The notes: a model not told the origin generated them from the sequence alone. DNA of 64,000 nucleotides from Candidatus Kaiserbacteria bacterium (GCA_027083345.1 JALWOZ010000012.1:4025-68024); one strand, 5' to 3'. Counted from the first letter of the stretch, positions 17,763 through 61,893 are shown. Numbers and translations are program-made.

Positions 17763-19037
17763 TTAGTAACTTACTCCCCTGGTATACCGATTAGCCGGGT
17801 CCCATATCATATACCCACCCGTAACTCCAGCATCTCGACTAGCTTTTATCTGGGCATTGACCTCTGCTATGCCATAATTACCCCCGTAATCAAAATCTTG
17901 CAACCACGGGCGCATTTTCTCAGTGCTGTATATAGGCTTTTTATATATAGCTGGTGTACTGGTAGACACGCGAGTATAAGCAAATGAGGCTATCTTTGTA
18001 CTTGTTGCCATAGTACGCTCTACGGCCTTTTTCATAGAGTAGTTAACGACACTATATACATCACTATTAGGATTCTTCAACCCTATAAATCCGGGAGGGT
18101 AATGGCTCGGATACACCATTGGTGCAACTGCATCAAAATACGGTAAGGTCCTTTCAAGTACTTGCCCTATTGTCAAATCATCATAATTAGTTGCAGTCAT
18201 ACCAAAAAGATCAGCAGAGAGCATGGGCCTATCTCCTAACTTATATGATGAGCTGAGTTGCTCATGCAAATAAACAAAAAACTTCTCTAAATTTTTAGCT
18301 CTATTAGCATCTGTAACAACTCCATTAACTCCTGATAAAGAATAGTAAACATCTTTCATTGGGCCGTCTGAGGGGTATCTAATATAGTCAAAATTTAACT
18401 CATCAAAACCTAATTTGTCGTGAGATTCTCTAGCTAAGGTTATTATATAATCCCAATACTTTTTAGCTCCTACATCTATAAAATGCAAACCCTTATAATC
18501 AGACCAAGGTACAGTGGGGACACTTGCTTTATGCACTGCGAGCTCGGGATGATTTTTAGCATATAAAGGATCTTGGAAGACGGTAATACGCCCAATCACA
18601 TAAATATCATTATCATGTAATTCCTCTATAAAACTTTTTATGTCATTAATTTTACATCCTCTGCCCTCTGCACCCTCTGCTAAAATTTTAGCCTCCGTAG
18701 GCACAGAGATCGTACCTGTGTAATCTTTAATGTCTATAACTATGGCATTTAATTCTGTTTGCTTGATCAGATTTAGTAGTTTACTACGCAACTCCTTACT
18801 AGCACCATAACATGCAGTCATATATATACCTCTCACCTCTTTAGGCATCTCAACATGTTTAACTATTGGTCCCTGCACTAAAGTACGATCTGAAACAGTT
18901 GAAGTAGCCGAATTATAAGATACTTGATCAATATTAAAATCACTTACAAAAAAGCTCCACAAAGCTACTAAAACAAGTACTAGAATCCCCACAATTCCTA
19001 TTATTGTTACTCTAGACGGTTTATTATTTCTGCTCAT
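17763..19037 (-). CDS. Membrane-anchored putative glycoside hydrolase (TIM-barrel, DUF4015/GHL-like).
   Basis: It has an N-terminal TM helix. The NAIVIDIKD motif and overall pattern resemble the putative glycosyl hydrolase family; the assignment is tentative. Confidence 0.4.
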   Translation of the reverse strand: MSRNNKPSRVTIIGIVGILVLVLVALWSFFVSDFNIDQVSYNSATSTVSDRTLVQGPIVKHVEMPKEVRGIYMTACYGASKELRSKLLNLIKQTELNAIVIDIKDYTGTISVPTEAKILAEGAEGRGCKINDIKSFIEELHDNDIYVIGRITVFQDPLYAKNHPELAVHKASVPTVPWSDYKGLHFIDVGAKKYWDYIITLARESHDKLGFDELNFDYIRYPSDGPMKDVYYSLSGVNGVVTDANRAKNLEKFFVYLHEQLSSSYKLGDRPMLSADLFGMTATNYDDLTIGQVLERTLPYFDAVAPMVYPSHYPPGFIGLKNPNSDVYSVVNYSMKKAVERTMATSTKIASFAYTRVSTSTPAIYKKPIYSTEKMRPWLQDFDYGGNYGIAEVNAQIKASRDAGVTGGYMIWDPANRYTRGVSY

Positions 19038-48052: not shown

Positions 48053-49750
48053 CTACATTCTTTCTGGAGTGTTGATGCCCAAGATTTGCAAGCCGTTTTT
48101 AATTGTCTGAGCTGTTACCTCTGTTAGGGCTAGTTTGTAGTGCTCCGCATCTGTGCCGTCTAGTATCTTGCCCTGCGCATACCAGCTGTTGTATGCGCTA
48201 GCCAGGTCATTGAGATAATTTGCAATATGATGTGGCTGGTACTCCAGAGCCGCACGCTTCACTACCTCTGGAAATCTATAAAGCAACTTCTCTATGTTTG
48301 TATGCACCCAGTCTCTCGGCACTTGCACTTTTATGTCTCCTCTATGCGGATATGCCTTCGCCATCACCGACTTACACCTCGCATATGTATACTGCAAGTA
48401 TGGCCCAGAATCCCCCTCAAATGAGAGCGACTGCTCTATGTCGAAGGTGATATTCTTACCCATGCCTACCTTCACTATCGCATACTTAACAGCGGCAATT
48501 GCCACCATCTCTGCAGACTCCTCTGTCATCTCAGAACCTGATTCTTGCGCTCTCTCTAAGGCGGAGCTCTTTACAGAGTCTAGTATGTCTACCGCAAGAG
48601 GCACACCACCACTCCTAGAGGAGATCTTGCCCGTTGTGAGAGCAAGCCTGCCATGCTGGAGGAATAGCGACTTCTCTGCCCACTCTCTGTTAATAAGCTC
48701 TGCCGACTTCTTCACCAGCTCAAAGTGTTGCTTCTGCTCTACATCTGTAACTGTTATAGACTTATCAAAGTCATACTCTCTAAACTTAATACTAAGTAGT
48801 CCAGTGTCTTTAGCTAAATATGTACCAAAGCCGGCTGAGTTGATATACACATTGTCAAATAGTCCGTGCTCCGAGCCTCTGAATATCACAGCTCCGTCAG
48901 ACTCCTCAAACACACTCGGCACATTCTCAAGCACAATCCTCTTACCCTCCTGCTCAGCCTGAGTCTCAAATATCAGCTTGTCAAAGTGCGAGCCGAGCCG
49001 AGCTATGATGTTATTGAAGTACTCTAGCGAGAGCTCCCTACCCCTCTTATACACCTCGTACTCCGGTGAGTCCTCTTTGTTATATATATTGGTGTTTATT
49101 TCATTTATGCGAGCCTTTGCCCCCTCACTCTCTTTATACGCTTCTACACCCTTAACATACGCCTCGCCCACCTGCTCTATGGTAAAGTTCTCCGCAATAC
49201 CCATCTCTATGATACCCCACACCGCCTTGGCAATACCAGGCGACACATCTGAGGGGAAGGATATTGCAGTAACATAAGCACCAGCAAATTGCATTAAGCG
49301 TACAAGTGCCTCACCATATGTATTATTAACCAAATGCCCAATGTGGAAGGGTTTAAAAAGATTCGGCGAGCTATGCTCTAGTAGTATCTTCTCTCCGCTG
49401 AGAGCATCACTCTTGCCCCACTCTCCTCCGCGCTCTAAAGCCTCAGCAACACTATGCTCAAAGAACTCCTCAGAGAGGTGGAAGTTGATAAACCCTGGCC
49501 CGGCAATCTCTACCCTATCAACCCACTCAATCTCCGGCAACTTAGACACAATCTCCTCAGCCAACTCCCTGGGACTCTTACCCAACCCCTTAGAAAGTCG
49601 CATGGCAACATTACAAGAGTAATCACCGTGAGTTAAGTCAGCCGGATGCTCCAAAGTTATCTCAGTACCACTCACATCAATACCAACACCCGCACTCTCA
49701 AGAGCCTGCTTAAGCAGGCCTTTAATTACATCTTGTATCTCAACAGTCAT
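48053..49750 (-). CDS. argS: Arginyl-tRNA synthetase.
   Basis: It has the HIGH motif SPNLFKPFHIGHLVNN, the DALR anticodon-binding domain, and typical length. Confidence 0.85.
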   Translation of the reverse strand: MTVEIQDVIKGLLKQALESAGVGIDVSGTEITLEHPADLTHGDYSCNVAMRLSKGLGKSPRELAEEIVSKLPEIEWVDRVEIAGPGFINFHLSEEFFEHSVAEALERGGEWGKSDALSGEKILLEHSSPNLFKPFHIGHLVNNTYGEALVRLMQFAGAYVTAISFPSDVSPGIAKAVWGIIEMGIAENFTIEQVGEAYVKGVEAYKESEGAKARINEINTNIYNKEDSPEYEVYKRGRELSLEYFNNIIARLGSHFDKLIFETQAEQEGKRIVLENVPSVFEESDGAVIFRGSEHGLFDNVYINSAGFGTYLAKDTGLLSIKFREYDFDKSITVTDVEQKQHFELVKKSAELINREWAEKSLFLQHGRLALTTGKISSRSGGVPLAVDILDSVKSSALERAQESGSEMTEESAEMVAIAAVKYAIVKVGMGKNITFDIEQSLSFEGDSGPYLQYTYARCKSVMAKAYPHRGDIKVQVPRDWVHTNIEKLLYRFPEVVKRAALEYQPHHIANYLNDLASAYNSWYAQGKILDGTDAEHYKLALTEVTAQTIKNGLQILGINTPERM

Positions 49751-49869
49751 AAGCTCAATGGTACACCAAACTCATAATTTATAAAACCCCATAACCCTTG
49801 ACAAATGTGGGGGGTGATAAGGTGAATATGTTGCCAACTAGGCAACTCTTCAACAGAAAGGAGGCTACT

Positions 49870-50007
49870 ATGCCCTATCAAACTGAAGAACAGTTCCACA
49901 ACAAATACTTCCTGTGTTCCATCGGGGGGAGTGGCGACTGGGATGATGGCGCCGCCAGCGACCAGGGCAATGGTGACAGCTCTGGTGATGTGGGTAATGA
50001 CCTGTAA
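49870..50007 (+). CDS. Small acidic peptide gene (45 aa, MPYQTEEQFHNKYFLCSIGGSGDWDDGAASDQGNGDSSGDVGNDL) in a GC-rich mini-cassette.
   Basis: There is a perfect SD AAAGGAGG at 49857-49864 with 5 nt to the ATG, an upstream TTGACA at 49797-49802, and a strong terminator at 50027-50070. It is below the ORF-track cutoff as a standalone ORF. It conflicts with an antisense 91-codon ORF. Confidence 0.35.
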   Translation: MPYQTEEQFHNKYFLCSIGGSGDWDDGAASDQGNGDSSGDVGNDL

Positions 50008-50026
50008 ATTCCCACTCATCACCTAG

Positions 50027-50070
50027 GCCCAATTCCGTGTTACAATACATGCGGGATTGGGCTATTTTTA
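50027..50070 (+). terminator. Rho-independent terminator: GCCCAATTCCG-N14-CGGGATTGGGC followed by tattttta.
   Basis: An 11-bp stem with one G-U pair, followed by a T-rich tail, is visible. Confidence 0.6.
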
Positions 50071-50098
50071 ATAATTTTCTACATTATTCTATGATCTT

Positions 50099-51079
50099 AT
50101 GAACTTATTCAAAGTCACAGCAAATAAAGAACTAGCTAGATTCTTCTGGCTACAATCTATGACACAGTGGATATGGTCTGCTCAAATACCTCAGTTAGTA
50201 AATCCGGCATTTAACAAACTGATAGCTGATTTTGTTAAAGATAATCATGTATTAATACATAAATGCAAAGAAATATTATCCGAGAAAGAACATAGCTTCA
50301 AGCTCATCTGGGATGTATATTTGAACAAAAATCTACTCAATGACGCTAACCTGGCGCCAATAAATAATTTGCTGCATGTCTTCAGTCCCGTATTCGACAT
50401 TATATGGGAATCTGAATTACCTCAAATAGATCAATGGTCAAAGCAAATCAATGCTGATTTTACAGAAGAACATCAATTATTTATAAAAAAAGTAAAACAA
50501 TTCTTGCAAAGTAATTTTGCCCAAAAAACACCAATAACCATATACCCATTATTGTGTAGCAAAAATCTTACAACATCTCTAATAAATAAAGATCATCCTA
50601 ACATAATACTAGCACAACACTGGGGGTGCTTTAATAATAAACAGATTATCATCAAATCATTAATGCATGAATATGTACACATGTTACAGAATAATTCAAA
50701 ATCCGATGAATTTCTGCGCACGGCTTTTATTAAAGTTAAAATACCAGAAAATCTTAAAGATACTGAAAATGCACCGCCGCTTAGTTATGTAGCACGAGAG
50801 ATTTTGGTACAATCTTTAGTGTCTACAGAATTACCCTCTTACTACTCAGTATATTTTCACCACAATAATGAATTCAGTAACATACATAAACCCCAGTCTA
50901 TAAAAAATGAGTTGAATAAAAAAACCTATCATGATTGGTACTCTCATATAAGATATATAGCATACGAAAGTCAAAATATATTAAATGAATATATGCAAAA
51001 AGAGAAATCTATAGACCAAGAGTATTGTGATAAATTAGCTAAAATAACTATTAATCATATTAATAATCTTAATAGTTAA
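50099..51079 (+). CDS. Hypothetical protein with an HExxH motif (LMHEYVHML); a possible zinc-metallopeptidase-like protein.
   Basis: Only the HEYVH motif was recognised. It is AT-rich, with native-like composition. Confidence 0.3.
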   Translation: MNLFKVTANKELARFFWLQSMTQWIWSAQIPQLVNPAFNKLIADFVKDNHVLIHKCKEILSEKEHSFKLIWDVYLNKNLLNDANLAPINNLLHVFSPVFDIIWESELPQIDQWSKQINADFTEEHQLFIKKVKQFLQSNFAQKTPITIYPLLCSKNLTTSLINKDHPNIILAQHWGCFNNKQIIIKSLMHEYVHMLQNNSKSDEFLRTAFIKVKIPENLKDTENAPPLSYVAREILVQSLVSTELPSYYSVYFHHNNEFSNIHKPQSIKNELNKKTYHDWYSHIRYIAYESQNILNEYMQKEKSIDQEYCDKLAKITINHINNLNS

Positions 51080-51828
51080 GATTTGATTACATGACACGGA
51101 GCAAATACTGTATCGTAGAATACTTCACCGGCTTCCAATCTTTTCTGATTATAATTAACTTTAAAATATATGGCCTTGTTTTTATCTGACAAATTCCTAT
51201 TAACTATATTTGCCAATAAATCTAAGTTACTAATAACAATCTCCCTTGACGTATTTGCACGAGCGTTAGCAAAGATTGGCAATAATATACCTTTAGAGAT
51301 ATATTCCTTAGCGTATACTGTTAAAAAGTGCACCATTAGTCTACCTCCAACCGATTTTGAATCTTTTGTGGTCATCCAATCTGTTATATAAATTATCCTT
51401 TTTGAGTTCCTTACACCTTCATATGCAGTTATATATCCATCTAACTTCCCAGAATTATCTCTATGCAAAAAAGATAACTTTGGGTATCCTCTAGCAATAC
51501 TCAATACATCACAGGCAAATAATATCAACTCATGTTTCCATTCTGGCTTACACAAATCTGGGTTATCTGTATATATTTCTTTTTCTAAAGCCACTATGTC
51601 AGTTGTATTACAACCATATGATTCTTGAATACCTATCTTTTTTATAATGCACTTTTCGGAGTCTAACAATCCCATGTCTATAGCTTTTGTAACCTCTTCT
51701 TTTGTCAAACATAAGAACGGTACTCTAAATAATCCATTTAATAAACGATCTTGAAGACTATCTCTATTTTTTAAATTTTCCATAATCCCAATTTTCAACT
51801 CAGTTTCATAATCGTACACCAAACTCAT
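51076..51828 (-). CDS. Hypothetical protein, possibly with a GNAT-like acyl/acetyltransferase fold.
   Basis: KSVGGRLMVHFL resembles the GNAT motif A region. It is the last gene of a tight five-gene minus-strand operon. Confidence 0.3.
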   Translation of the reverse strand: MSLVYDYETELKIGIMENLKNRDSLQDRLLNGLFRVPFLCLTKEEVTKAIDMGLLDSEKCIIKKIGIQESYGCNTTDIVALEKEIYTDNPDLCKPEWKHELILFACDVLSIARGYPKLSFLHRDNSGKLDGYITAYEGVRNSKRIIYITDWMTTKDSKSVGGRLMVHFLTVYAKEYISKGILLPIFANARANTSREIVISNLDLLANIVNRNLSDKNKAIYFKVNYNQKRLEAGEVFYDTVFAPCHVIKS

Positions 51829-51831
51829 AAT

Positions 51832-53055
51832 TTATAAAGCTTTGTTTTTGTGTAAGAATATTAGCGCCATTAAACCTATGGTCGCGAATGTACCCGCCGA
51901 TAGTAGTAGTGCCACCGGCAAAGATAGTAAATCACTAGCATAGCCCAGTGCCGGCCCTACAATTATAAACATCAAACGTCCTACAAGATTCTTGATAGAC
52001 AATACAGTCGCTCGGACATCAGACTCAATCCTCCTATGTACATAATCTCTCAATATAGGTTGTTGCACCGCACGCACAAAGTAGAACACAAGTATCACCG
52101 GCAATATTATTAGTGATGGATACAACCCAAGCAATATATAAGTAGTGACCACAAGTATCACTAAAGCAATAAGAGCCTTGCGTAACCCAAGCAGATTCTC
52201 AAACTTGGTAGCAAACATAGCAAACACTCCTATAGAGACATTTAATATCGCCCAGAGCACACCAAACCAAGCTATGGGTATATTGAGTAACTGCCAATAC
52301 GGCTGCATAAACCAAACAAACACAAGAGTAGAGGTGTTGATGGCGCCAGCATATATAATGATCCACTTAAGCTCCTTGTGCCCGTGTAGAGAATATTTGA
52401 TAATCTTAATCATCTCTTGCCAGAGATTTGCAGAGGTGTCTTTAACCCGCTTAACAGCCGGCTCAACTAAAGATATTGTGATTGGTATTGTGGGAATCAA
52501 TACAACAGCCCAGATTATAAACGGATACCTCAAGTTGATAGCCCCTATTATGCCCCCGGCAACACCACCGATAGCTTGTGAATATGCCCCTATAGCGACT
52601 ACTTTAGACTCAATACGCTTATGCTCATCAGTCTTGCCTAGGCCTATCAAGGTGTTATATAGCAGAGCCGAGTCTGCCCCGGAGATGAATGCATGGCCAA
52701 CGCCCAGCACTACCTCGGCAAATAATATCGCCCAGAATCCATATGCCAGAGCATAAACCACAGCCCCAAGAGTAATGACGAGGGACCCTAGCACCAACGC
52801 TCTCTTGTGCCCGAGCTTGTCAGATATATAACCAGACGGGATCTCAAATAATAAGACCGAAATAGAGAAGACAGCCTGCACCACAAATACATCTTGCATA
52901 GAGAGCCCATTCTCTTGGAAGAAGAGCGTAACAATCGGCATAGTGATCATCATCCCAAGCAAGCCGTGGAAGATATACAACTTCTTAATATTACCCTCTA
53001 AATACTCTTGATTTAACTTTAACATTAAAGCTAGGATAGCATTACCTACATACAT
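51832..53055 (-). CDS. MFS transporter (12 TM).
   Basis: It has twelve predicted TM helices and MFS-like loop motifs (GYISDKLGHKRAL). Confidence 0.7.
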   Translation of the reverse strand: MYVGNAILALMLKLNQEYLEGNIKKLYIFHGLLGMMITMPIVTLFFQENGLSMQDVFVVQAVFSISVLLFEIPSGYISDKLGHKRALVLGSLVITLGAVVYALAYGFWAILFAEVVLGVGHAFISGADSALLYNTLIGLGKTDEHKRIESKVVAIGAYSQAIGGVAGGIIGAINLRYPFIIWAVVLIPTIPITISLVEPAVKRVKDTSANLWQEMIKIIKYSLHGHKELKWIIIYAGAINTSTLVFVWFMQPYWQLLNIPIAWFGVLWAILNVSIGVFAMFATKFENLLGLRKALIALVILVVTTYILLGLYPSLIILPVILVFYFVRAVQQPILRDYVHRRIESDVRATVLSIKNLVGRLMFIIVGPALGYASDLLSLPVALLLSAGTFATIGLMALIFLHKNKAL

Positions 53056-53095
53056 TTACCAACAACCAGGTCACTGGTGTTTTATATCGAGATAA

Positions 53096-54736
53096 TTATT
53101 TAAAAGCAACCACAGGCAACTCTATGGTGAAGGTTGAGCCTTTGTTTAGACCCTCTGACTCTACCCATATTTTACCTTTATTTGCCTCTATCAAGTTTTT
53201 AGCTATAAAGAGCCCCATACCCGTACCAAAGGCGTCTGTCTCCTTAGCATTGTCTGCCCTTGTAAACTTGTCAAACAAGCCAGCTACCTCTCCTTTTGCC
53301 ACCCCTATACCTGTGTCTTTAATACTCACGCGCACGCGCTTGCCACTCTCACTCAGCTCTGTGCGCACCTGTACCTCACCCTTATGAGTATACTTAATGG
53401 CATTCTCCAAGAGTGCATTGAGTACTTGTGTAATATTGTTCTTGTCAGCTTTAACCATACACTTATCACCCTCTACATCGTGCTCTATTGTCATCTTAAT
53501 ACCCTTATCTTGTGCATTAACTAAGCGTACTTCAACCCTCTCGTCTACAAGCTCGCACAGGTCAAACTCCGTCATATTCTGCACTACATTATCCTCCTCA
53601 ATGCGCGCAATGTTCATATAGTCATTAATCGTCTCCGACATCACCTTACTGGCAGACAAAATATTATTTATAGGCACTTTGGCACTCTTAGGCATATCTC
53701 CATAATCTCCTTCTAAGATTAAAGATGCATAACCATTAATAGCCGTAATAGGCCCGCGCAATTGATGAGTAGCAATATGCAAAAACTCATTCTTCTTCTC
53801 GTCTAGTTCTTTAAGTTTTTTGTTCGCCTTTTCTAAACTTGTAGCTACCTCTTCAATACGTTCTTTAGTGCTTATTTCTTTTTTCATTGTGTGAATTATC
53901 ATATAACCTAAAAAAGTAAATATAATAAGTGGTATAATTGTCAAAATACGAGTCGTAATAGTTTGACTAAATAACACATTAATAGATAATAAGACCCAAC
54001 TTGCTGACACGACCAGTTCCGTCAACGCTATTTTAGTATTAAAAATTTGTTCTTTATAAATTCCGTAAGTTATAAAAGCCGCCATAAAAGATATGCTTAT
54101 CTGTCCTACCCAATTAAAAGTAAAATCCCCTGTTATTGGTAAAATGAGATTAGTCACAAAACTAATAAACGTCGCAACACTAGCTCCAATTATTAGGTAA
54201 AATATCTGACTTCTAGTAACTAGTTTTTTGGTATTTCTATAAGTATCAATTAAGATACCAAATCCTATACTAAACAAACTAAACAAATAAAAACCATACA
54301 CAATATGTAAGATATTATTAAATAATATCACTTGTTCACCTATAGTTGGTCGTAGCACACCCAAAATAAGTAAATCGGGGCTAAATACTAAATACAAAAT
54401 CGACACTAGAGATAAAAAGAAAGATGCGGATATAATCTTATAATGCAAAATCTTAATTTTAGCCAACGCTGCAGCTAGATAAATAAAAGACAGAGGTATT
54501 AGCGCGGCATCTGCGTATAGTAAACGTGTAATAAATAAGTTCCAACCATCAGAAAATGGATGGCTACGATAAATAATCATTAACACTCCCCATAAACTCA
54601 CTATAATAGTCAATACAAATAATCTTTTGTTAATTGATTCTTTTGGATTATGGGCAAATATAATAACTCCATAAATAAGATTCAATAAAACCGAAAAACC
54701 TATTAAAGTATTAATTACTGTGAGACCTGTACTCAT
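53096..54736 (-). CDS. Sensor histidine kinase with an N-terminal 7-8 TM sensor domain. No cognate response regulator is nearby.
   Basis: It has the H-box EFLHIATHQLRGPITAI, the N/G1/G2 boxes (LENAIKYT, DTGIGV, GTGMGL), and multiple TM segments in the first 260 aa. Confidence 0.8.
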   Translation of the reverse strand: MSTGLTVINTLIGFSVLLNLIYGVIIFAHNPKESINKRLFVLTIIVSLWGVLMIIYRSHPFSDGWNLFITRLLYADAALIPLSFIYLAAALAKIKILHYKIISASFFLSLVSILYLVFSPDLLILGVLRPTIGEQVILFNNILHIVYGFYLFSLFSIGFGILIDTYRNTKKLVTRSQIFYLIIGASVATFISFVTNLILPITGDFTFNWVGQISISFMAAFITYGIYKEQIFNTKIALTELVVSASWVLLSINVLFSQTITTRILTIIPLIIFTFLGYMIIHTMKKEISTKERIEEVATSLEKANKKLKELDEKKNEFLHIATHQLRGPITAINGYASLILEGDYGDMPKSAKVPINNILSASKVMSETINDYMNIARIEEDNVVQNMTEFDLCELVDERVEVRLVNAQDKGIKMTIEHDVEGDKCMVKADKNNITQVLNALLENAIKYTHKGEVQVRTELSESGKRVRVSIKDTGIGVAKGEVAGLFDKFTRADNAKETDAFGTGMGLFIAKNLIEANKGKIWVESEGLNKGSTFTIELPVVAFK

Positions 54737-55848
54737 ATTTTATTAATTCTACTCCTTAACATATTAACAACATTCTCAATATATTTATCTGAAATAACCC
54801 CTATAAAATTCTGATATTCTGGTAATTGAAATCCTAATTTATGACCTAATCTCGCCACATAATCTACTTGATCTAATGTGGCTCTACCAATAACAAAATT
54901 GGCACAAATGTCATTATATGCTAAAACCATAACTTCGACTAAACAGCAATAATTTATATTATCACCATGTAACCCTATATCAAAATTTACATTGACCCCC
55001 GGAGTCAAAACTGCTCCTGCTTCTATTACCATAACATCATTACGATCAAAGACTTCTTCTGACACATCGGACGGTTGTGCGTCGTCCACAATAAAGGTAC
55101 CAGGAGATACATAATCAGACAGAATAGTTGCTCCTGGTGCATTAGTGGCGGTTATAATAATATGAGCTTTTTTAATAATATTCATATCATCTGTAATAAT
55201 GACATTTTTCATCATTTTTCTAAATGTGTCCTTTATTAATTTATGCTTCCTTTTCAGATCTACAAGTAATATTTTTTTAAAAGGCTCTCTAGCCAAAAGT
55301 TGTGCTGAAATACTACCCACTGAACCAGCAGCTCCTACAACCGCAATTATTATACTCGCATAATTTAAATTATTCTTGAAAATAAAATCTCTTACGTACT
55401 CCGTAACATTATACCCTGTATAAGCATGTCCAGTTGTGATGCAGATATTATCAATATCAATAAGTTTCTTACCGCCGTGCGACAACGAAGAAGTTAGTGC
55501 GCCTAATCCAACTATTCTCACACCCATGTTCCTAGCCTTTCTAATTGCTCGACGTATTTGAATAACCGCATATCTACGATACTTCAACATAGTATTAGTA
55601 GACATAGGCAAAGAGATAACAACACCTCGTATTAAATTACCATTTTTATCCTCTAGACCTGTGATGTCAGCTATTTTAACTGGTCCCATTATAAATTCAA
55701 AAATAGTTAAGACCCAACCGGGAACATATTTAAATATTTTAAACTTTTTTAATATTTCCTTTTTTGTGCGTGGGTGCACTATAAAAGCATAGTCATATTT
55801 AACTGATGTACCCTTATTAATCTTATTGGACTTTAATTTAGAATTCAT
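54733..55848 (-). CDS. Homolog of cyanobacterial long-chain acyl-ACP reductase (AAR family; NAD(P)-binding).
   Basis: It is collinear with AAR: FIVHPRT~LIGHLTS; AVIQIRRAIRKARNMGVRIVGLGALTSS~ATRKVLNAMSHAQKHGIDISALGGFTSI; TTGHAYTGY~TTGNTHTAY; IAVVGAAGSVGSISAQLL~VAVVGATGDIGSAVCRWL (Rossmann). The comparison uses a remembered reference sequence. Confidence 0.55.
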   Translation of the reverse strand: MNSKLKSNKINKGTSVKYDYAFIVHPRTKKEILKKFKIFKYVPGWVLTIFEFIMGPVKIADITGLEDKNGNLIRGVVISLPMSTNTMLKYRRYAVIQIRRAIRKARNMGVRIVGLGALTSSLSHGGKKLIDIDNICITTGHAYTGYNVTEYVRDFIFKNNLNYASIIIAVVGAAGSVGSISAQLLAREPFKKILLVDLKRKHKLIKDTFRKMMKNVIITDDMNIIKKAHIIITATNAPGATILSDYVSPGTFIVDDAQPSDVSEEVFDRNDVMVIEAGAVLTPGVNVNFDIGLHGDNINYCCLVEVMVLAYNDICANFVIGRATLDQVDYVARLGHKLGFQLPEYQNFIGVISDKYIENVVNMLRSRINKI

Positions 55849-55860
55849 AACATTATTAAT

Positions 55861-56559
55861 TTATTGCAACTTAATAAGTATATTCTCTCTCACATTGTTA
55901 ACTAAAACTTCGTATGTATCTTTATTAGACTCTTTAACTCTAGCCTTAATCTCAATAGACTTCCCGTAGTAAATAAATACCCTAGCCTTCCTCAAGAAGA
56001 TATTCTTAAGACTTAATTTATAAGTACCCTTTATGGCTACAGGTATTATAGAGGCCTTTGTCTCGGACGCTAAATATACGATTCCCCCATGAAATTCTTG
56101 TAATTTGCCATCTTCAGTTATTTTACCTTCAGGATACATACACAATGGATACCCGTCTTTTAAATTACTTACTTGTGTTCTTAATGATTTTGCATAGTCT
56201 CCATTACCTCTCTCTAAAGGATACGCACCCCATAATGCAAAAACATACTGCAAGATACCGCTTCTATACAAGACACCTAACCAACCTCTTTTATTAGACT
56301 CTTTAAATGCATATATAGGTGCCGTAACGTATATCATAGGACTCCACCTAGAGAACCAAGGCAAAGCCGCCCTCACAAGCCAAGAGTCCAACTCATGAGC
56401 ATGATTAGGCGCAAATATGACTTTACTAGACACACTTTTTAAATTCTCTAGTCCCTTAATCTCCAAATGCATGAAAAATTTAAAAAACAACCTAAAAAAA
56501 GGCCACGAGATAAACTGTATCATAAATGGGATAATAATTTTAAATCGTACCTTCCTCAT
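55861..56559 (-). CDS. plsC: 1-acyl-sn-glycerol-3-phosphate acyltransferase family (PlsC-like).
   Basis: It has the HX4D motif APNHAHELDS and the downstream YPEGK motif, with an N-terminal hydrophobic segment. Confidence 0.7.
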   Translation of the reverse strand: MRKVRFKIIIPFMIQFISWPFFRLFFKFFMHLEIKGLENLKSVSSKVIFAPNHAHELDSWLVRAALPWFSRWSPMIYVTAPIYAFKESNKRGWLGVLYRSGILQYVFALWGAYPLERGNGDYAKSLRTQVSNLKDGYPLCMYPEGKITEDGKLQEFHGGIVYLASETKASIIPVAIKGTYKLSLKNIFLRKARVFIYYGKSIEIKARVKESNKDTYEVLVNNVRENILIKLQ

Positions 56560-56626
56560 AAACCATAGCTTAACATAGACTTAAGTATATACATAAACAA
56601 GGCAAACTCCTTACATCCTTATACCA

Positions 56627-59494
56627 CTAAATTATCTCAACCTTAAACTCTCCCTCACTAAAATTAAACTTATTTATAAAAGTCTGCTTTGTTATGTCTA
56701 TCTCAAACTTTTGTATTATCCTCTGCTCTTCTTGTGAGGCAGTTACGTTTGCTCCTGTATACTCTCCAGCCTTAAGACCTGCACTCTTACGAGCCTTCTG
56801 CATCTCTCTAACTATCTCTCTCAACTTGCCCTCCTCTATTAAATCGTCAGTGAGGACAGTATCTAGCCCAACCTCATATTGTCCCTCAGGTTCAAAAAAT
56901 ACAGATTTAACATTAAGCTCATCTGCTATAATATCCTTAAGTTCTTGGGATAACTCACTATATCTTAATGTAACTGAGGCTAGAGGTTGTCTCACATTTA
57001 TATGAGCCTCTTTGCGTGCATCTAACGCCTTAGTTATGAGTTTACGTACCTCCTCCATCTCTTCTATTATCTTAGAGTCTACACTCTTTATTGAGCACCA
57101 CCTTGCCAAATGCACACTCTCTACATCGTCAGCCCTCTTAACTCTATGCCACAACCAATCAGCATGAAATGGTGCAAAAGGTGCCAACATCTTAGACAAT
57201 TTACGCAATACAAAACGAGTTGTCTCTAGAGCCTCACGCTTGTCTTGCTTATCCTCACCTTTAAACCTGTCCCTACTACGACGGATATACCAAGTAGAAA
57301 GGTCATCTACAAAATCAACAAAACCTCTTGAGGCCTTGTCTAGCTCATACTCCTCCATAGACCTAGTTACCTCATTATGTAATAGCTCTATACGGGCTAT
57401 AATCCATCTATCTAATATATTTCTACTATCAGACTTACTCTCGTGCTCTAATGAGTCTTTATATAATTCATAAAACTCATATACATTAACCAACCGCCCA
57501 AACATCTTACGGGTAATCTCTTCAACACCCTTCTCTGAAAAAAATAGATTCTCCGCCCTAACGACAGGTGAACTTAATATATAAAGACGCATAGAGTCAG
57601 CTCCATATTTATTAATCATATACATTGGGTCTGGATAATTCTTTAAACTTTTGCTCATCTTTTTACCATCCTCTGCTAAAACCATCCCTGTAGTAACAAC
57701 ATTTTTGAATGCGTTTTTATCAAATAAAGCACCTGAAAGCACATGCTGATAATAAAACCAAGTACGGCACTGGTCTTGAGCCTCAGCTATAAAGTCGGCC
57801 GGCACCCGCTTAATAAACTCATTCTTATTCTCAAATGGATAATGCAAAGAGGCATATGGCACAGACCCGGAGTTAAACCAGGTGTCTAATACATCTGGTA
57901 TGCGCATCATCTGCCCTTTGCCACACTTGCTACAATGCCAAGTTACAGTATCTACTACATCTTTATGTAAATCATTAACTCTTGTACCACTAAGCTCCTC
58001 AAGCTCGTCTATACTCCCCACTACCACCTCACTATCGCACTCACTACACCTCCATACAGGCATGGTATTAGCCCAAAAGCGATTACGAGAAATAGACCAA
58101 TCACGAGCACCCTCAAGCCACTTACCCCAACGTCCTTGCTTAATGTGTTTTGGAGTCCAATTTATATTCTCTGCATATTTAATTAACTTGCTCTTTATCT
58201 CCTCCACTTTTACAAACCAACTTGACGTAGCATAGTTAAGTAGCGGGGTATCACAACGCCAACAATGTGGGTAGCTGTGCTCTATTTTCTTTTTATTAAA
58301 GAGCTTATCGTTATGCGCCAGCCATTTTATTATCTCTATGTCTGTCGCCATATGATCATCTTTGGGCTTTACATTGAGGCCGGCAAAGTCAACAACCTCA
58401 GGTTTAAAATTACCTGCAATGTCTACATGCTGCACAAACGGTAATCCAACCTCTTTAGCCAACTCCATGTCCTCAGCTCCAAATGCAGGAGCCTCATGAG
58501 CTACACCTGTACCATCCTCATCTGAGATAAAGCCCGCAGGATATATCTGCCAACCGTTCTCTCTGTGCTCTAGGCTCTTGTCGTCATAGTAATAATCAAA
58601 GAGGGGCTTATACTTTTTGCCCACCAACTCACTACCTTTATACTCTGCGACTATCTTATACTCTTCATCACCAAAAGTGTCATCTAAACGCCTCTTTGCT
58701 AAGATAAACCTAACGGTGTCCCCACTCTCATTATCTACCTTCTTTATGGTTACGTAATCTATATCAGCACCAACTGCTAGCGCCACGTTACCCGGCAATG
58801 TCCACGGAGTTGTCGTCCAAGCCAAAACATATGTCTTTGGCTCGTCTATTAACTCAAACTTTACTGTTACTGAGAGGTCTTTAATATCTGCATACCCCTC
58901 GGCAACTTCACTCTGACTCAATGTTGTCTCACATCGTGGACAAATATGCATAGGCCTATGACTCTCATATACTAGCCCCTTCTCATATAATTGCTTAAAA
59001 GCCCACCACTCGCTCTCCATAAAGGTTGTGTCCATTGTTTTATAAGCATGCTCCATATCTACCCAGCGTCCTATACGTGGTATTATCTTCTCCCAAGTTT
59101 CTGCATACTCAAATATTTTGCCTCTACAAGTGTCATTAAACTTTTTAACTCCTACCCTCTTTATATCCTCTCTACCCGAGATCCCCAACTCCTTCTCTAC
59201 AATATTCTCTATAGGCAAACCATGACAATCCCAACCCCATTGCCTCTTAACTCTATAACCTCTCATAGTCTTATAGCGAGGGATGGCATCTTTAACAAAG
59301 CTCTGCAACAAGTGTCCATAATGAGGTAACCCTGTGGCAAATGGAGGACCATCATAAAAGGAGAACTCCTTAGGACTGCTCTCTCCTGCCGGGGTCTCAA
59401 TAGACTTAGTAAAGATCTTTTGTCTATCCCAAAAATCCAAGACCTCCTCCTCTCTTAATGCTATGTTGGATTTCTCTATTACTTCTTTAGACAT
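56627..59494 (-). CDS. ileS: Isoleucyl-tRNA synthetase, type 2 (eukaryote-like) form.
   Basis: It has PPFATGLPHYGHLL (the type-2 HIGH region), KMSKSL, and an editing domain. It is 955 aa. Confidence 0.9.
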   Translation of the reverse strand: MSKEVIEKSNIALREEEVLDFWDRQKIFTKSIETPAGESSPKEFSFYDGPPFATGLPHYGHLLQSFVKDAIPRYKTMRGYRVKRQWGWDCHGLPIENIVEKELGISGREDIKRVGVKKFNDTCRGKIFEYAETWEKIIPRIGRWVDMEHAYKTMDTTFMESEWWAFKQLYEKGLVYESHRPMHICPRCETTLSQSEVAEGYADIKDLSVTVKFELIDEPKTYVLAWTTTPWTLPGNVALAVGADIDYVTIKKVDNESGDTVRFILAKRRLDDTFGDEEYKIVAEYKGSELVGKKYKPLFDYYYDDKSLEHRENGWQIYPAGFISDEDGTGVAHEAPAFGAEDMELAKEVGLPFVQHVDIAGNFKPEVVDFAGLNVKPKDDHMATDIEIIKWLAHNDKLFNKKKIEHSYPHCWRCDTPLLNYATSSWFVKVEEIKSKLIKYAENINWTPKHIKQGRWGKWLEGARDWSISRNRFWANTMPVWRCSECDSEVVVGSIDELEELSGTRVNDLHKDVVDTVTWHCSKCGKGQMMRIPDVLDTWFNSGSVPYASLHYPFENKNEFIKRVPADFIAEAQDQCRTWFYYQHVLSGALFDKNAFKNVVTTGMVLAEDGKKMSKSLKNYPDPMYMINKYGADSMRLYILSSPVVRAENLFFSEKGVEEITRKMFGRLVNVYEFYELYKDSLEHESKSDSRNILDRWIIARIELLHNEVTRSMEEYELDKASRGFVDFVDDLSTWYIRRSRDRFKGEDKQDKREALETTRFVLRKLSKMLAPFAPFHADWLWHRVKRADDVESVHLARWCSIKSVDSKIIEEMEEVRKLITKALDARKEAHINVRQPLASVTLRYSELSQELKDIIADELNVKSVFFEPEGQYEVGLDTVLTDDLIEEGKLREIVREMQKARKSAGLKAGEYTGANVTASQEEQRIIQKFEIDITKQTFINKFNFSEGEFKVEII

Positions 59495-59569: not shown

Positions 59570-60727
59570 CTACTTCCAATCAGTTAAATAAATACCTTTT
59601 ATATTCGTCTTATCAATCTTCATTACACTAGACAAATACTTTTGCTCTTTTAGAGAGTAGTAGCGTATCCCCGACTGCACATCACCTATATCACTATTTA
59701 ACCAAGATGTAACAAACGCTAATGTATTATTATTTTTGTCAAAAACAGGGTTAGTGGCCACGATAGGTAGAGTTGGTAATGCTGTAAATATCCCTTTCTT
59801 CCAATCTTGGACTCTTATAATCGTAACCAATCTCTCTTTTGGTGAACTCAATGCAAAGTAACTACCATCATCTGCAACATCAAAACCATTAACAATGCTT
59901 ATTGGGCTTAAGCTCTTCCACACTAATTGCTCTCTCTTAGTTAATAGATCATATACATACACTCCATCATTGCGCAAAAACGCAAAAGAGCTTTGGCTTA
60001 TCCACTTGGGATACAGACCATTTGTTATCAATGTCTTATCTGTATCATTAACTAAATATATATTCCAAGACTCTGCCGGCACATTATTGGGCTCATTACT
60101 TGCCTTAGCAAGATTCTCCTTACTTAAAGATGCATAGAGTATCGCTCCACTATTAGAGACTACAGGAGCAGACCTCATATAGTCCTCATCACTATGCACA
60201 GATACCAGCTTGGCTGTTTTTAATAATTTAATGAGACCATTAGCATCTTTGGCTGTCTCTACACTAGCTAAATATATATCATAAGTATTTGCATCTTCAA
60301 CAGTATCTTTTGTAGTAGCTAAATATGCAATATATGCCTCATTGCCCGACACATTATATTGGAGAGATACGGCATCACTACCATTTATCTTATTGACTGG
60401 TAAGCTCACAATCTCTCCACTAAGAGTATTTAATAGTGCCGGCACAGGCGTACCGCTGGCAGATATTACAGAGACGAGTATCTTGCCCTCCGGGAGACTG
60501 TCAGAGTAGCTGATGAGTTGCGCATTGCTTTCAGTCTCTAAATTAACAATTTTAGCTGTGCGCTTGTATATATTATTTAGCACATTATCTTTTAATACGC
60601 TATCATTGCCAAACACAGAGTATACAATAACACCAACACTTAAAATAATAACTAATATGACAATGTTTGTGTATACTCTGCGATTAAACATATAAACCCT
60701 TATTAAAATTACTAAATCTCTTGCCAC
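59570..60727 (-). CDS. Membrane-anchored extracytoplasmic hypothetical protein (possibly beta-propeller-like).
   Basis: It has an N-terminal TM helix. The body is repetitive and beta-rich, with no clear motif. Confidence 0.35.
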   Translation of the reverse strand: MARDLVILIRVYMFNRRVYTNIVILVIILSVGVIVYSVFGNDSVLKDNVLNNIYKRTAKIVNLETESNAQLISYSDSLPEGKILVSVISASGTPVPALLNTLSGEIVSLPVNKINGSDAVSLQYNVSGNEAYIAYLATTKDTVEDANTYDIYLASVETAKDANGLIKLLKTAKLVSVHSDEDYMRSAPVVSNSGAILYASLSKENLAKASNEPNNVPAESWNIYLVNDTDKTLITNGLYPKWISQSSFAFLRNDGVYVYDLLTKREQLVWKSLSPISIVNGFDVADDGSYFALSSPKERLVTIIRVQDWKKGIFTALPTLPIVATNPVFDKNNNTLAFVTSWLNSDIGDVQSGIRYYSLKEQKYLSSVMKIDKTNIKGIYLTDWK

Positions 60728-61893
60728 TCTGGTACTAAGCGGACTGTTACGGAGTCTGTTATTTGCTCACCATTTAGACCTTCACAAGTAAGGTTGTAAG
60801 TAGTTTGGGTTACAATCTCACTAGAGATATGGTCTCCGTTAATACCGCTCCAACCAGCACCTCCATCACCATTAGAGCCGGATACACTACAAGACTTTGT
60901 ATATGCTGAAAGCCATACTATATTGGCTCTCTTTGTCTTTTTAACTAATATCGGCCTTGCAAATATCTGTGCTGTAGGCTCTCCTACGGTAGGTGGAGAG
61001 AGCTCTACCCATGTTACATCACCAGACCCTCCTGTGAGGCTCTCTGTTGGGTAACGAGTAATATAGCACACTCCGGCTCCACACCCTCTAACTCCAGTAG
61101 CTACTCCGCTGTCTAATTGCACAGTACAAACCCCTGATGGATTTGGCACATTTGGCGCATTACATGAGTATGAGCCGGAACCTCCTATGCACTGTGTGCC
61201 ACTATTAACCTCTCCACAGATATTAGGGAAAGATTCACAACTAGAGGGTGTGCAGGATTGTGATTGTGTCGGTGGAGATACTGGAGGCGTAGGTGGAGTT
61301 GGTGGAGTTGGAGGCTCTGGTATATCACAAGAGGCGGAGCGTGAGGCACTCTTGCCAGAGCCGGTAACCGGCCCTAAAACTACATATTCTGAAGGACAAC
61401 ATGTGCCATTAGACACCGTCTGAGTACCAGGGGGACAACTTGATGTATTTGGACCGCCTGAGGATCCGTTATTACTGTCGGTATTGTGGTAGGTAATAGT
61501 ATTGTATGTACCGTCTCCGTTATTGTAAAACTGAGTACCTCCCGTAACTTGTGCGAACCAAGACGGTGTTGTGTTGGTTATTACACTCAAATTATCACTG
61601 TTATTAAATGTATCTACAGTTATATAAGAAGAGCCTCCCGGTTTTGAATTGTCTAAATAAACTTGATCTATAACATTCGTTGTTTCATCAGTAAAGCTGT
61701 CCCAGCTATCAAAAAGATTTATTTCGGAGTTAGAAAATGCATAAGTATATATATAAGGGAATAACAATAATACAAATACTGTACTAGCAATATATAACTT
61801 ATTGTAATTATTTAACATGCATTTTGTACTATATCTAATAACACAATCCATTCTATCACACATAAGATATTTATAACAATATAATACACACAT
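60712..61893 (-). CDS. Secreted Cys-rich hypothetical protein with a Pro-Thr-rich linker (PEPPTPPTPPTPPVSPP).
   Basis: It has an N-terminal hydrophobic signal/anchor. A tandem 9-nt repeat (ggtggagtt) at about 61270-61320 encodes PTPP repeats. No family was recognised. Confidence 0.4.
   Translation of the reverse strand: MCVLYCYKYLMCDRMDCVIRYSTKCMLNNYNKLYIASTVFVLLLFPYIYTYAFSNSEINLFDSWDSFTDETTNVIDQVYLDNSKPGGSSYITVDTFNNSDNLSVITNTTPSWFAQVTGGTQFYNNGDGTYNTITYHNTDSNNGSSGGPNTSSCPPGTQTVSNGTCCPSEYVVLGPVTGSGKSASRSASCDIPEPPTPPTPPTPPVSPPTQSQSCTPSSCESFPNICGEVNSGTQCIGGSGSYSCNAPNVPNPSGVCTVQLDSGVATGVRGCGAGVCYITRYPTESLTGGSGDVTWVELSPPTVGEPTAQIFARPILVKKTKRANIVWLSAYTKSCSVSGSNGDGGAGWSGINGDHISSEIVTQTTYNLTCEGLNGEQITDSVTVRLVPEWQEI

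Follow-up and report, generated by a model that had tools for sequence, protein, structure and literature searches.

A candidate lipid-acyl cassette with a membrane-embedded sensor kinase, and its accessory neighbours, in a Candidatus Kaiserbacteria genome

We analysed a stretch of 64,000 nucleotides (nt), one strand, from a Candidatus Kaiserbacteria bacterium (GCA_027083345.1 JALWOZ010000012.1:4025-68024); this whole stretch is referred to below as the window, and the gene search for this genome was confined to it. The window has a low GC content (0.32-0.47) and carries compact housekeeping genes, and its nearest relatives are Patescibacteria of the Kaiserbacteria/Paceibacteria type. Five consecutive genes on the minus strand, at 51076-56559, encode in the order of their reading an acyltransferase, a homolog of acyl-acyl carrier protein reductase (AAR), a sensor histidine kinase, a major facilitator superfamily (MFS) transporter and a GNAT-fold protein. 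A preliminary description of this DNA had treated the five as one tight operon. Our listing of open reading frames (ORFs) reproduced its coordinates and its gaps exactly: 12, -4 (an ATGA overlap), 40 and 3 nt. Because short gaps are usual in a compact genome, spacing alone is weak evidence of co-transcription. Judged by gene order in relatives, the conserved unit is the first three genes only, and the MFS and GNAT-like genes are later additions.

The first gene (55861-56559, minus strand) encodes a PlsC/AGPAT-type acyltransferase of 232 amino acids. Its PF01553 score of 62.9 bits, against a Pfam gathering cut-off of 23, places it in the family, and its HX4D motif reads H53-AHEL-D58 (window 56386-56403); the earlier call of a PlsC-like, HX4D acyltransferase is borne out by both. 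The sequence also carries a YPEG motif and a single N-terminal transmembrane segment (residues 8-26), the presumed membrane anchor. The ortholog alignment shows conservation of NHxxxxD and FPEG, and the H-x4-D string is present in 54 of the 56 aligned acyltransferases (55 orthologs and the window protein). The protein matches Thermotoga PlsC (5KYM, E 3.4e-8) and resembles this T. maritima enzyme and the Aas domain in HX4D, (F/Y)PEG, N-terminal anchor and approximate size. It differs from PlsC/AGPAT enzymes in that it scores below the equivalog cut-off of TIGR00530, the 1-acylglycerol-3-phosphate O-acyltransferase family (44.2 versus 102.95 bits), while its best NCBIfam matches are lysophospholipid acyltransferase domains of the Aas type.

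The second gene (54733-55848, minus strand) encodes a protein of 371 amino acids that NCBIfam and PDB alignments identify as a homolog of NAD(P)-dependent acyl-thioester reductases of the AAR/PigE-N type. It matches the NCBIfam model of the PigE N-terminus (E 3.2e-37, 128 bits against a cut-off of 850) and that of cyanobacterial AAR (TIGR04058; E 1.8e-16, 60.4 bits against an equivalog cut-off of 449.7), in both cases over its full length, and it aligns with the structures 4ppm (E 2.9e-14) and 6jzq (E 1e-5). In these alignments, residue C302 (window 54943-54945) falls on C294, the nucleophile of AAR, and on the cysteine of PigE. Across 21 reductase sequences, C301, C302, E305 and the Rossmann motif VGAAGSxG (VGAAGSVG in the window) are invariant. 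With full-length homology and a conserved catalytic cysteine, the AAR-family assignment in the preliminary description holds. Could the protein be an ordinary shikimate/quinate dehydrogenase instead, as that description had allowed? Profile search rules this out: the Pfam Shikimate_DH match (PF01488, 31.5 bits) is limited to NAD-binding residues 165-275, whereas the full-length matches are to PigE-N and AAR. The same NAD domain gives a weak Semialdhyde_dh match (E 5.8e-5).

AAR acts through an acyl-Cys294 intermediate, the N-terminal part of PigE is by now interpreted as a thioester reductase, and all characterised members of the family work in the reductive direction (PMC10829540). The window protein shares with AAR (6JZQ/6JZU) and the PigE N-domain (4PPM) full-length homology, a GxGxxG Rossmann motif and the nucleophilic cysteine, and the chemistry expected from this likeness is the reduction of an acyl-Cys thioester by NAD(P)H to an aldehyde (PMC10829540). 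The surroundings are different. Unlike AAR, the window reductase has no aldehyde-deformylating oxygenase as a neighbour, but a PlsC-type acyltransferase and a histidine kinase, and its host lineage is reported to lack acyl carrier protein (ACP) (PMC7242380). Unlike PigE, it has no fused aminotransferase.

The third gene (53096-54736, minus strand), whose start overlaps the reductase stop in the ATGA, encodes a sensor histidine kinase of 546 amino acids. A Pfam scan of the full-length protein listed HisKA, with the phospho-acceptor H324 (53765-53767) within THQLRGP, and HATPase_c (about 53111-53446). The membrane domain HisKA_7TM (PF16927; about 54035-54697) was unlisted in that scan; a separate scan of the N-terminal 292 residues gave it 39.8 bits (cut-off 28.6). 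It also exceeds the Pfam cut-off in five kinase orthologs and is part of the precomputed annotation in the close relatives L083, L084 and L085. These domains uphold the earlier identification of a multi-transmembrane histidine kinase. The sensor region has no sizeable extracytoplasmic domain. There is a sharp gradient within the gene: the membrane domain has a GC content of 0.30 and 38% identity to the closest ortholog, and the catalytic end a GC content of 0.42 and 70-81% identity. This is the sole kinase in the window, and no receiver domain is present in any frame of the 64 kb; within these bounds the kinase is an orphan, as the preliminary description had said. A published catalogue lists HisKA_7TM among sensor domains with no known ligand and does not mention a partnership with an AAR-like reductase (PMC5847659). 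The window kinase has the same 7TM N-domain as HisKA_7TM kinases of bacteria and haloarchaea; the fixed AAR-like reductase partner is what sets the window cassette apart from them.

How far does this gene order extend? We scanned relatives, one genome per species, and obtained 80 loci with a reductase homolog (L001-L080), which we compared by tblastn and ORF clustering with mechanical ORF calls. Taxon labels are taken from the record titles of metagenome-assembled genomes (MAGs); L009, L038 and L043 (titled Gammaproteobacteria) and L032 (Methanosarcinales) were counted in the Patescibacteria set. In 56 of 57 Patescibacteria loci, the gene directly 3' of the reductase, in the same orientation, encodes a HisKA_7TM kinase, the denominator being loci with room downstream and excluding those labelled as another phylum. 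The gaps between the two genes are mostly -32 to +36 nt, often with overlapping start and stop codons, and the alignment of the kinase homologs covers the whole protein, the membrane domain as well. In 38/58 Patescibacteria loci the acyltransferase gene immediately precedes the reductase; about 12 others have it at another place in the locus. Throughout the 80 loci, neither the MFS nor the GNAT gene is linked to the cassette, bar a single MFS gene in L039, which lies on the opposite strand about 2.4 kb downstream of the kinase. Hence, of the five-gene order posited earlier, the acyltransferase-reductase-kinase part is conserved across relatives and the MFS and GNAT part is not.

In a minority of the Patescibacteria set, about seven loci, a CheY-like single-domain receiver is encoded some 1-2 kb from the cassette. 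It is located 3' of the kinase in L009 and L043 and further downstream in L005; in L040, L042, L050 and L055 it is divergent and one ORF upstream of the acyltransferase. Omnitrophota loci also have a CheY gene 3' of the kinase. All receivers near the cassette are CheY-like or HD-GYP proteins, none with a DNA-binding domain.

Outside Patescibacteria, the reductase family keeps company with genes of fatty-acyl-carrier chemistry. A Clostridia-labelled MAG (L070, 502-5599) encodes a dedicated ACP, the reductase, a HisKA_7TM-GAF kinase, a receiver-HD-GYP protein and, later, AcpS. An Omnitrophota locus (L073, 5827-16139) begins with CoaX, an acyltransferase, an SRPBCC-reductase fusion, a second reductase, one ORF and a kinase, and continues with CheY, two ketosynthases, an ACP and a FabA-like dehydratase. 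L077 has a FAR-type reductase, a kinase, the reductase, a methyltransferase-like ORF, a second kinase and CheY; in L079 a ketosynthase adjoins the reductase; and in L080, again Omnitrophota, a FeeM-like N-acyl amino acid synthase (a GNAT protein) and an ACP are encoded just upstream of the reductase homolog. The acyltransferase-reductase pair recurs in Acidobacteriota and Planctomycetota loci. We conclude that these contexts tie the reductase family to fatty-acyl-carrier chemistry. SRPBCC-reductase fusions were considered as a recurrent feature and rejected: L073 alone has one.

The two remaining genes have a different history. The fourth (51832-53055, minus strand) encodes an MFS_1 transporter of 407 amino acids, and its PF07690 match (E 7.8e-21) agrees with the family named before. 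A spacer of 40 nt (53056-53095, minus strand), with a palindromic hairpin at 53065-53078, separates it from the kinase and marks the boundary of the conserved cassette. This weak hairpin lacks a good U-run, so that transcription could continue into the MFS gene. In the close relatives, the kinase is followed directly by argS in L084 (the same sequence as L001) and by ileS in L085. In L083 (10775-13744), a Fic-domain gene, a small ORF and a PemK toxin gene stand between the kinase and an MFS ortholog, with argS beyond. Between the window and L083, the MFS proteins are 66-67% identical, compared with 52% for argS and the reductase and 43% for the kinase; this difference suggests that the MFS gene is a patchy, possibly exchanged accessory gene. 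The kinase-argS site is one that collects accessory and toxin-type genes.

The fifth gene (51076-51828, minus strand) encodes 250 amino acids as an ORF. Because the nearest homolog aligns from M16 (51781-51783), that codon may be the native start, which would lengthen the gap to the MFS gene to 48 nt. The protein had no match in Pfam, NCBIfam, PHROG or PADLOC, and a word-indexed homolog search returned only itself. An exhaustive phmmer search gave 241 matches; among the 150 listed, most are C-terminal domains of proteins of 1000-1700 amino acids. One protein among these relatives (P0123-P0270) reaches 5715 amino acids, and they share motifs such as AGNDTACCMPFGxGKNN. A Pfam scan of five of the giant GNAT-bearing proteins assigned no domain. 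One giant relative, at L086 5396-8851 in a MAG, sits among sugar-nucleotide and glycosyl hydrolase genes.

AlphaFold2 modelled the 250-residue protein with a pLDDT of 39 from the single sequence and of 89.5 with the phmmer-derived alignment. When the model was compared with the PDB by Foldseek, the top 50 matches were all acetyltransferases, nearly all of them explicitly of the GNAT family, and the best was Naa10 (E 7.8e-7, target TM-score 0.70). Read directly, the beta4-alpha3 junction is K-S-V-G-G-R, which is non-canonical compared with Q/R-x-x-G-x-G/A. We conclude that the protein is GNAT-like at the level of predicted fold, where the earlier GNAT-like call was right. In profile searches, the family profile gave a weak match to the GNAT protein BH1408 (E 0.0035), and Pfam and NCBIfam gave none.

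The position of this gene is explained by a direct repeat of 29 nt. Copy 1 (49757-49785) is the native argS leader, conserved upstream of argS; copy 2 (51810-51838) spans the MFS stop and the annotated start of the 250-codon ORF. The copies are identical at 28/29 nt, and their exact core of 25 nt had 0 matches in 100 shuffles. L083 and L084 retain the leader core GTGTACCATT immediately before argS. On this sequence evidence, the repeat bounds an insertion of 2,053 bp and about 30% GC that separates the MFS gene from argS. The 250-codon ORF takes its first six codons from the duplicated leader. The 3-nt gap to the MFS gene, which had been counted towards co-transcription, lies inside the repeat copy; it is therefore an insertion scar and no evidence of coupling. 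Compared with the closest relatives, the GNAT gene at this position is unique to the window genome.

Taken together, the families, catalytic motifs, conserved gene order, lipid-gene contexts and insertion scars lead us to consider it somewhat probable that the first three genes form a conserved Patescibacterial cassette to which younger accessory genes were added, and that this cassette is a module for lipid-acyl processing tied to a sensor within the membrane. From these features we infer the substrates, the direction of the reductase, and the signal and partner of the kinase as follows. The soluble reductase would take a fatty acyl group from a thioester donor onto Cys302 and, with NAD(P)H, reduce it to a fatty aldehyde. 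The membrane-anchored acyltransferase would acylate a lyso-lipid or glycerol-phosphate acceptor. The kinase, with a sensor wholly embedded in the membrane, may monitor the membrane itself or a lipid substrate or product, and would phosphorylate an unlinked receiver protein, most likely a single-domain protein of the CheY type. The searchable literature held no description of the three-gene cassette or of the reductase-HisKA_7TM kinase pairing, and the suggestion that this is not a described system stands to that extent. Every component comes from a known family; the cassette joins lipid-metabolic genes to a two-component sensor.

It is in favour of this reading that candidate phyla radiation (CPR) genomes have PlsY and PlsC, lack PlsX and ACP and are thought to obtain their lipids from hosts; Patescibacteria are reported to be without fatty acid synthesis (PMC7242380). 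Several points weigh against it. No ACP-like ORF was found in the window or in any Patescibacteria locus. With ACP reported absent and no candidate ORF for it, the acyl donor is the weak point of the mechanism. The reductase scores far under the AAR equivalog cut-off, no receiver accompanies the kinase in the window, and some of the MAG titles from which we took taxon labels are doubtful. Gene order itself is open to a plainer account, in which the trio are neighbours merely through inherited Patescibacteria housekeeping order and share no function. In many loci the trio lies within a co-directional housekeeping block, rpoA ... rpsI-grpE-dnaK-dnaJ-[trio]-trpS/tyrS-class II aminoacyl-tRNA synthetase-scpA-scpB, and the unrelated genes around it, with the cassette between dnaK-dnaJ and trpS/scpAB, are syntenic too; part of the adjacency could therefore be inherited. 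However, the kinase's downstream neighbour is rare or a singleton in 24/52 loci while the reductase-kinase pair persists. The link survives where both flanks differ, including the window's own lineage, in which the cassette is flanked by ileS and argS; the pair reappears in unrelated contexts in Omnitrophota and the Clostridia-labelled MAG, and the acyltransferase-reductase pair is found again in Acidobacteriota and Planctomycetota. Persistence with varying flanks and recurrence in other phyla favour a genuine reductase-kinase link, and we consider adjacency without shared function distinctly unlikely.

A bolder possibility, which we rate as unlikely though less so than the inherited-order account, is that the reductase, with the acyltransferase, makes a hydrophobic signal derived from a fatty aldehyde or alcohol that the 7TM kinase detects in the membrane, for quorum or host sensing on the pattern of DSF or CAI-1 systems. 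The near-obligate adjacency of reductase and kinase, often with overlapping codons, would fit such a synthase and receptor, as would a sensor without a sizeable extracytoplasmic domain, the L070 arrangement of upstream ACP and downstream receiver-HD-GYP (the RpfG architecture), the one SRPBCC lipid-binding fusion, and receivers that never carry a DNA-binding domain. Against it, there is no evidence of a diffusible product; the L073 module adjoins what may be plain housekeeping genes of type II fatty acid synthesis, where membrane homeostasis fits equally; and ACP and fatty acid synthesis are reported missing from Patescibacteria (PMC7242380). In its fullest form, which we rate as similarly unlikely, the reductase and 7TM kinase would be a lipid-signal synthase and its receptor, or else a sensor of host lipids, which Patescibacteria inherited from their ancestor and have in common with Omnitrophota. 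These host-dependent cells, auxotrophic for lipids, would detect with it fatty-aldehyde-type molecules that stem from lipids of the host or their own, and would signal through a CheY-like protein to an output other than transcription, for example pili or attachment.

The missing ACP invites a scheme in the opposite direction: the cysteine dehydrogenase would run oxidatively, or serve as an acyl-enzyme carrier, and turn host-derived aldehydes or thioesters into an activated acyl donor (acyl-phosphate, acyl-CoA or acyl-enzyme) for PlsY or the adjacent PlsC-type enzyme, replacing the PlsX/ACP step. CPR bacteria do have PlsY and PlsC without PlsX or ACP, and the source of their acyl-phosphate is unknown (PMC7242380). 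A thioester intermediate is familiar from GAPDH and aspartate-semialdehyde dehydrogenase, the NAD domain of the reductase has its weak Semialdhyde_dh match, and the reductase adjoins an acyltransferase. Yet no supply of fatty aldehyde is known, the characterised family members are all reductive (PMC10829540), and the tighter linkage of the reductase to the kinase than to the acyltransferase would be left unexplained. We consider this scheme very improbable. The pathway sketched in the preliminary description, in which all five genes make a lipid-derived compound (for example an N-acylated amine, through reductase and GNAT), sense it through the kinase and export it through the MFS protein, seems to us just as remote. 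The genes are co-directional with short gaps, the 250-residue protein does have a GNAT fold, L080 sets a FeeM-like N-acyl amino acid synthase and an ACP upstream of the reductase homolog, and the weak hairpin 3' of the kinase need not end transcription. Conservation does not back the make-sense-export pathway, however: the MFS and GNAT genes fall outside the core both in the 80 loci and in the closest relatives, the GNAT gene lies in an insertion flanked by a duplicate of the argS leader, and its family occurs mostly at the C-termini of giant proteins and not beside reductases.

Also less likely is an ether-lipid route like that of ElbD. In Myxococcus ether-lipid synthesis, ElbD unites a FAR-type reductase, an acyl-CoA synthetase, an ACP and an AGPAT-like acyltransferase in one polypeptide, and fatty aldehyde has been linked to its activity (PMC9131029). 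Both systems couple a fatty-acyl reductase to a PlsC-type acyltransferase. They differ in that the ElbD reductase is of the SDR/FAR type (NAD_binding_4) and the window's of the AAR type, that the window cassette has no acyl-CoA synthetase or ACP domains, and that the elb operon has no kinase. Moreover, the lipids of a CPR-enriched size fraction were all acylglycerols, and ether lipids have not been reported for CPR (PMC7242380).

The pairing of reductase and kinase has architectural parallels elsewhere. As in those systems, the window encodes an enzyme for fatty-acyl thioesters beside a kinase with a purely transmembrane sensor. DSF (RpfF/RpfC/RpfG) and CAI-1 (CqsA/CqsS) each combine a lipid-signal synthase with a polytopic sensor kinase, and DesK senses the state of the membrane. 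RpfF is a synthase of the crotonase family and CqsA an enzyme dependent on pyridoxal phosphate (PLP). The receiver-HD-GYP protein of L070 recalls RpfG. The likeness is architectural only: the window enzymes are of the AAR and PlsC types, with neither a crotonase nor a PLP synthase among them, and its sensor domain, HisKA_7TM, is of another type than those of RpfC, CqsS and DesK.

The ultra-small Patescibacteria account for a large share of bacterial diversity, and the cassette bears on how they process lipids and sense hosts. The cassette links two acyl-lipid enzymes with one of the few sensor kinases in these genomes and gives the HisKA_7TM sensor domain its first genomic partner. It offers a specific candidate for the remodelling or sensing of lipids that is open to test, with E. 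coli as a host for reductase assays and liposomes for those of the kinase and no need to culture the organism.

Besides the GNAT gene, the insertion contains a convergent ORFan, a strong stem-loop and a small ORF preceded by a Shine-Dalgarno sequence; in our reading, the GNAT gene, the ORFan and the small gene arrived together with it. The ORFan (50099-51079, plus strand) encodes 326 amino acids with an HExxH motif, HEYVH, at 50666-50680, and its stop overlaps that of the GNAT gene. It had no profile match, and among 5.8 billion protein clusters a word-indexed search retrieved nothing but the protein itself. The small gene (49870-50007, plus strand), with GGAGG 5 nt before its ATG, encodes an acidic, Gly/Asp-rich peptide of 45 amino acids, MPYQTEEQFHNKYFLCSIGGSGDWDDGAASDQGNGDSSGDVGNDL, which contains an internal IGG; this putative peptide could be of the leader type. 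A terminator-like hairpin follows it (50026-50063), with a 15-bp stem and a U-run (dG -23.4 kcal/mol, z -5.2). There is no recombinase gene inside the insertion, and PHROG and PADLOC scans gave nothing relevant and no sign of a phage or defence origin.

An Rfam scan of 49000-57500 found no RNA family, and a promoter scan found 28 sites where shuffled sequence predicts 31.6, no better than chance. The look-up of a window protein at 17763-19037 returned no record. Two other public assemblies of the same genome, an ENA scaffold (L081) and a Logan contig (L082), are 100% identical to the window until both end inside the kinase gene, at 53409 and about 53762, close to the catalytic domain and the H-box. 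These ends suggest either variation among strains or an assembly that broke at a repeat, immediately ahead of the variable region. A large-scale misjoin of the contig was rejected: the order kinase-...-argS-pyrophosphatase-relA is the same in L083 and L084, and the C-terminal part of the kinase shares 81% identity with its counterpart in the closest relative. Elsewhere in the window, and unrelated to the cassette, a minus-strand gene at 60712-61893 encodes a Cys-rich protein of 393 amino acids with an N-terminal hydrophobic segment and a PTPPTPPTPP linker, which is probably secreted or exposed at the surface.

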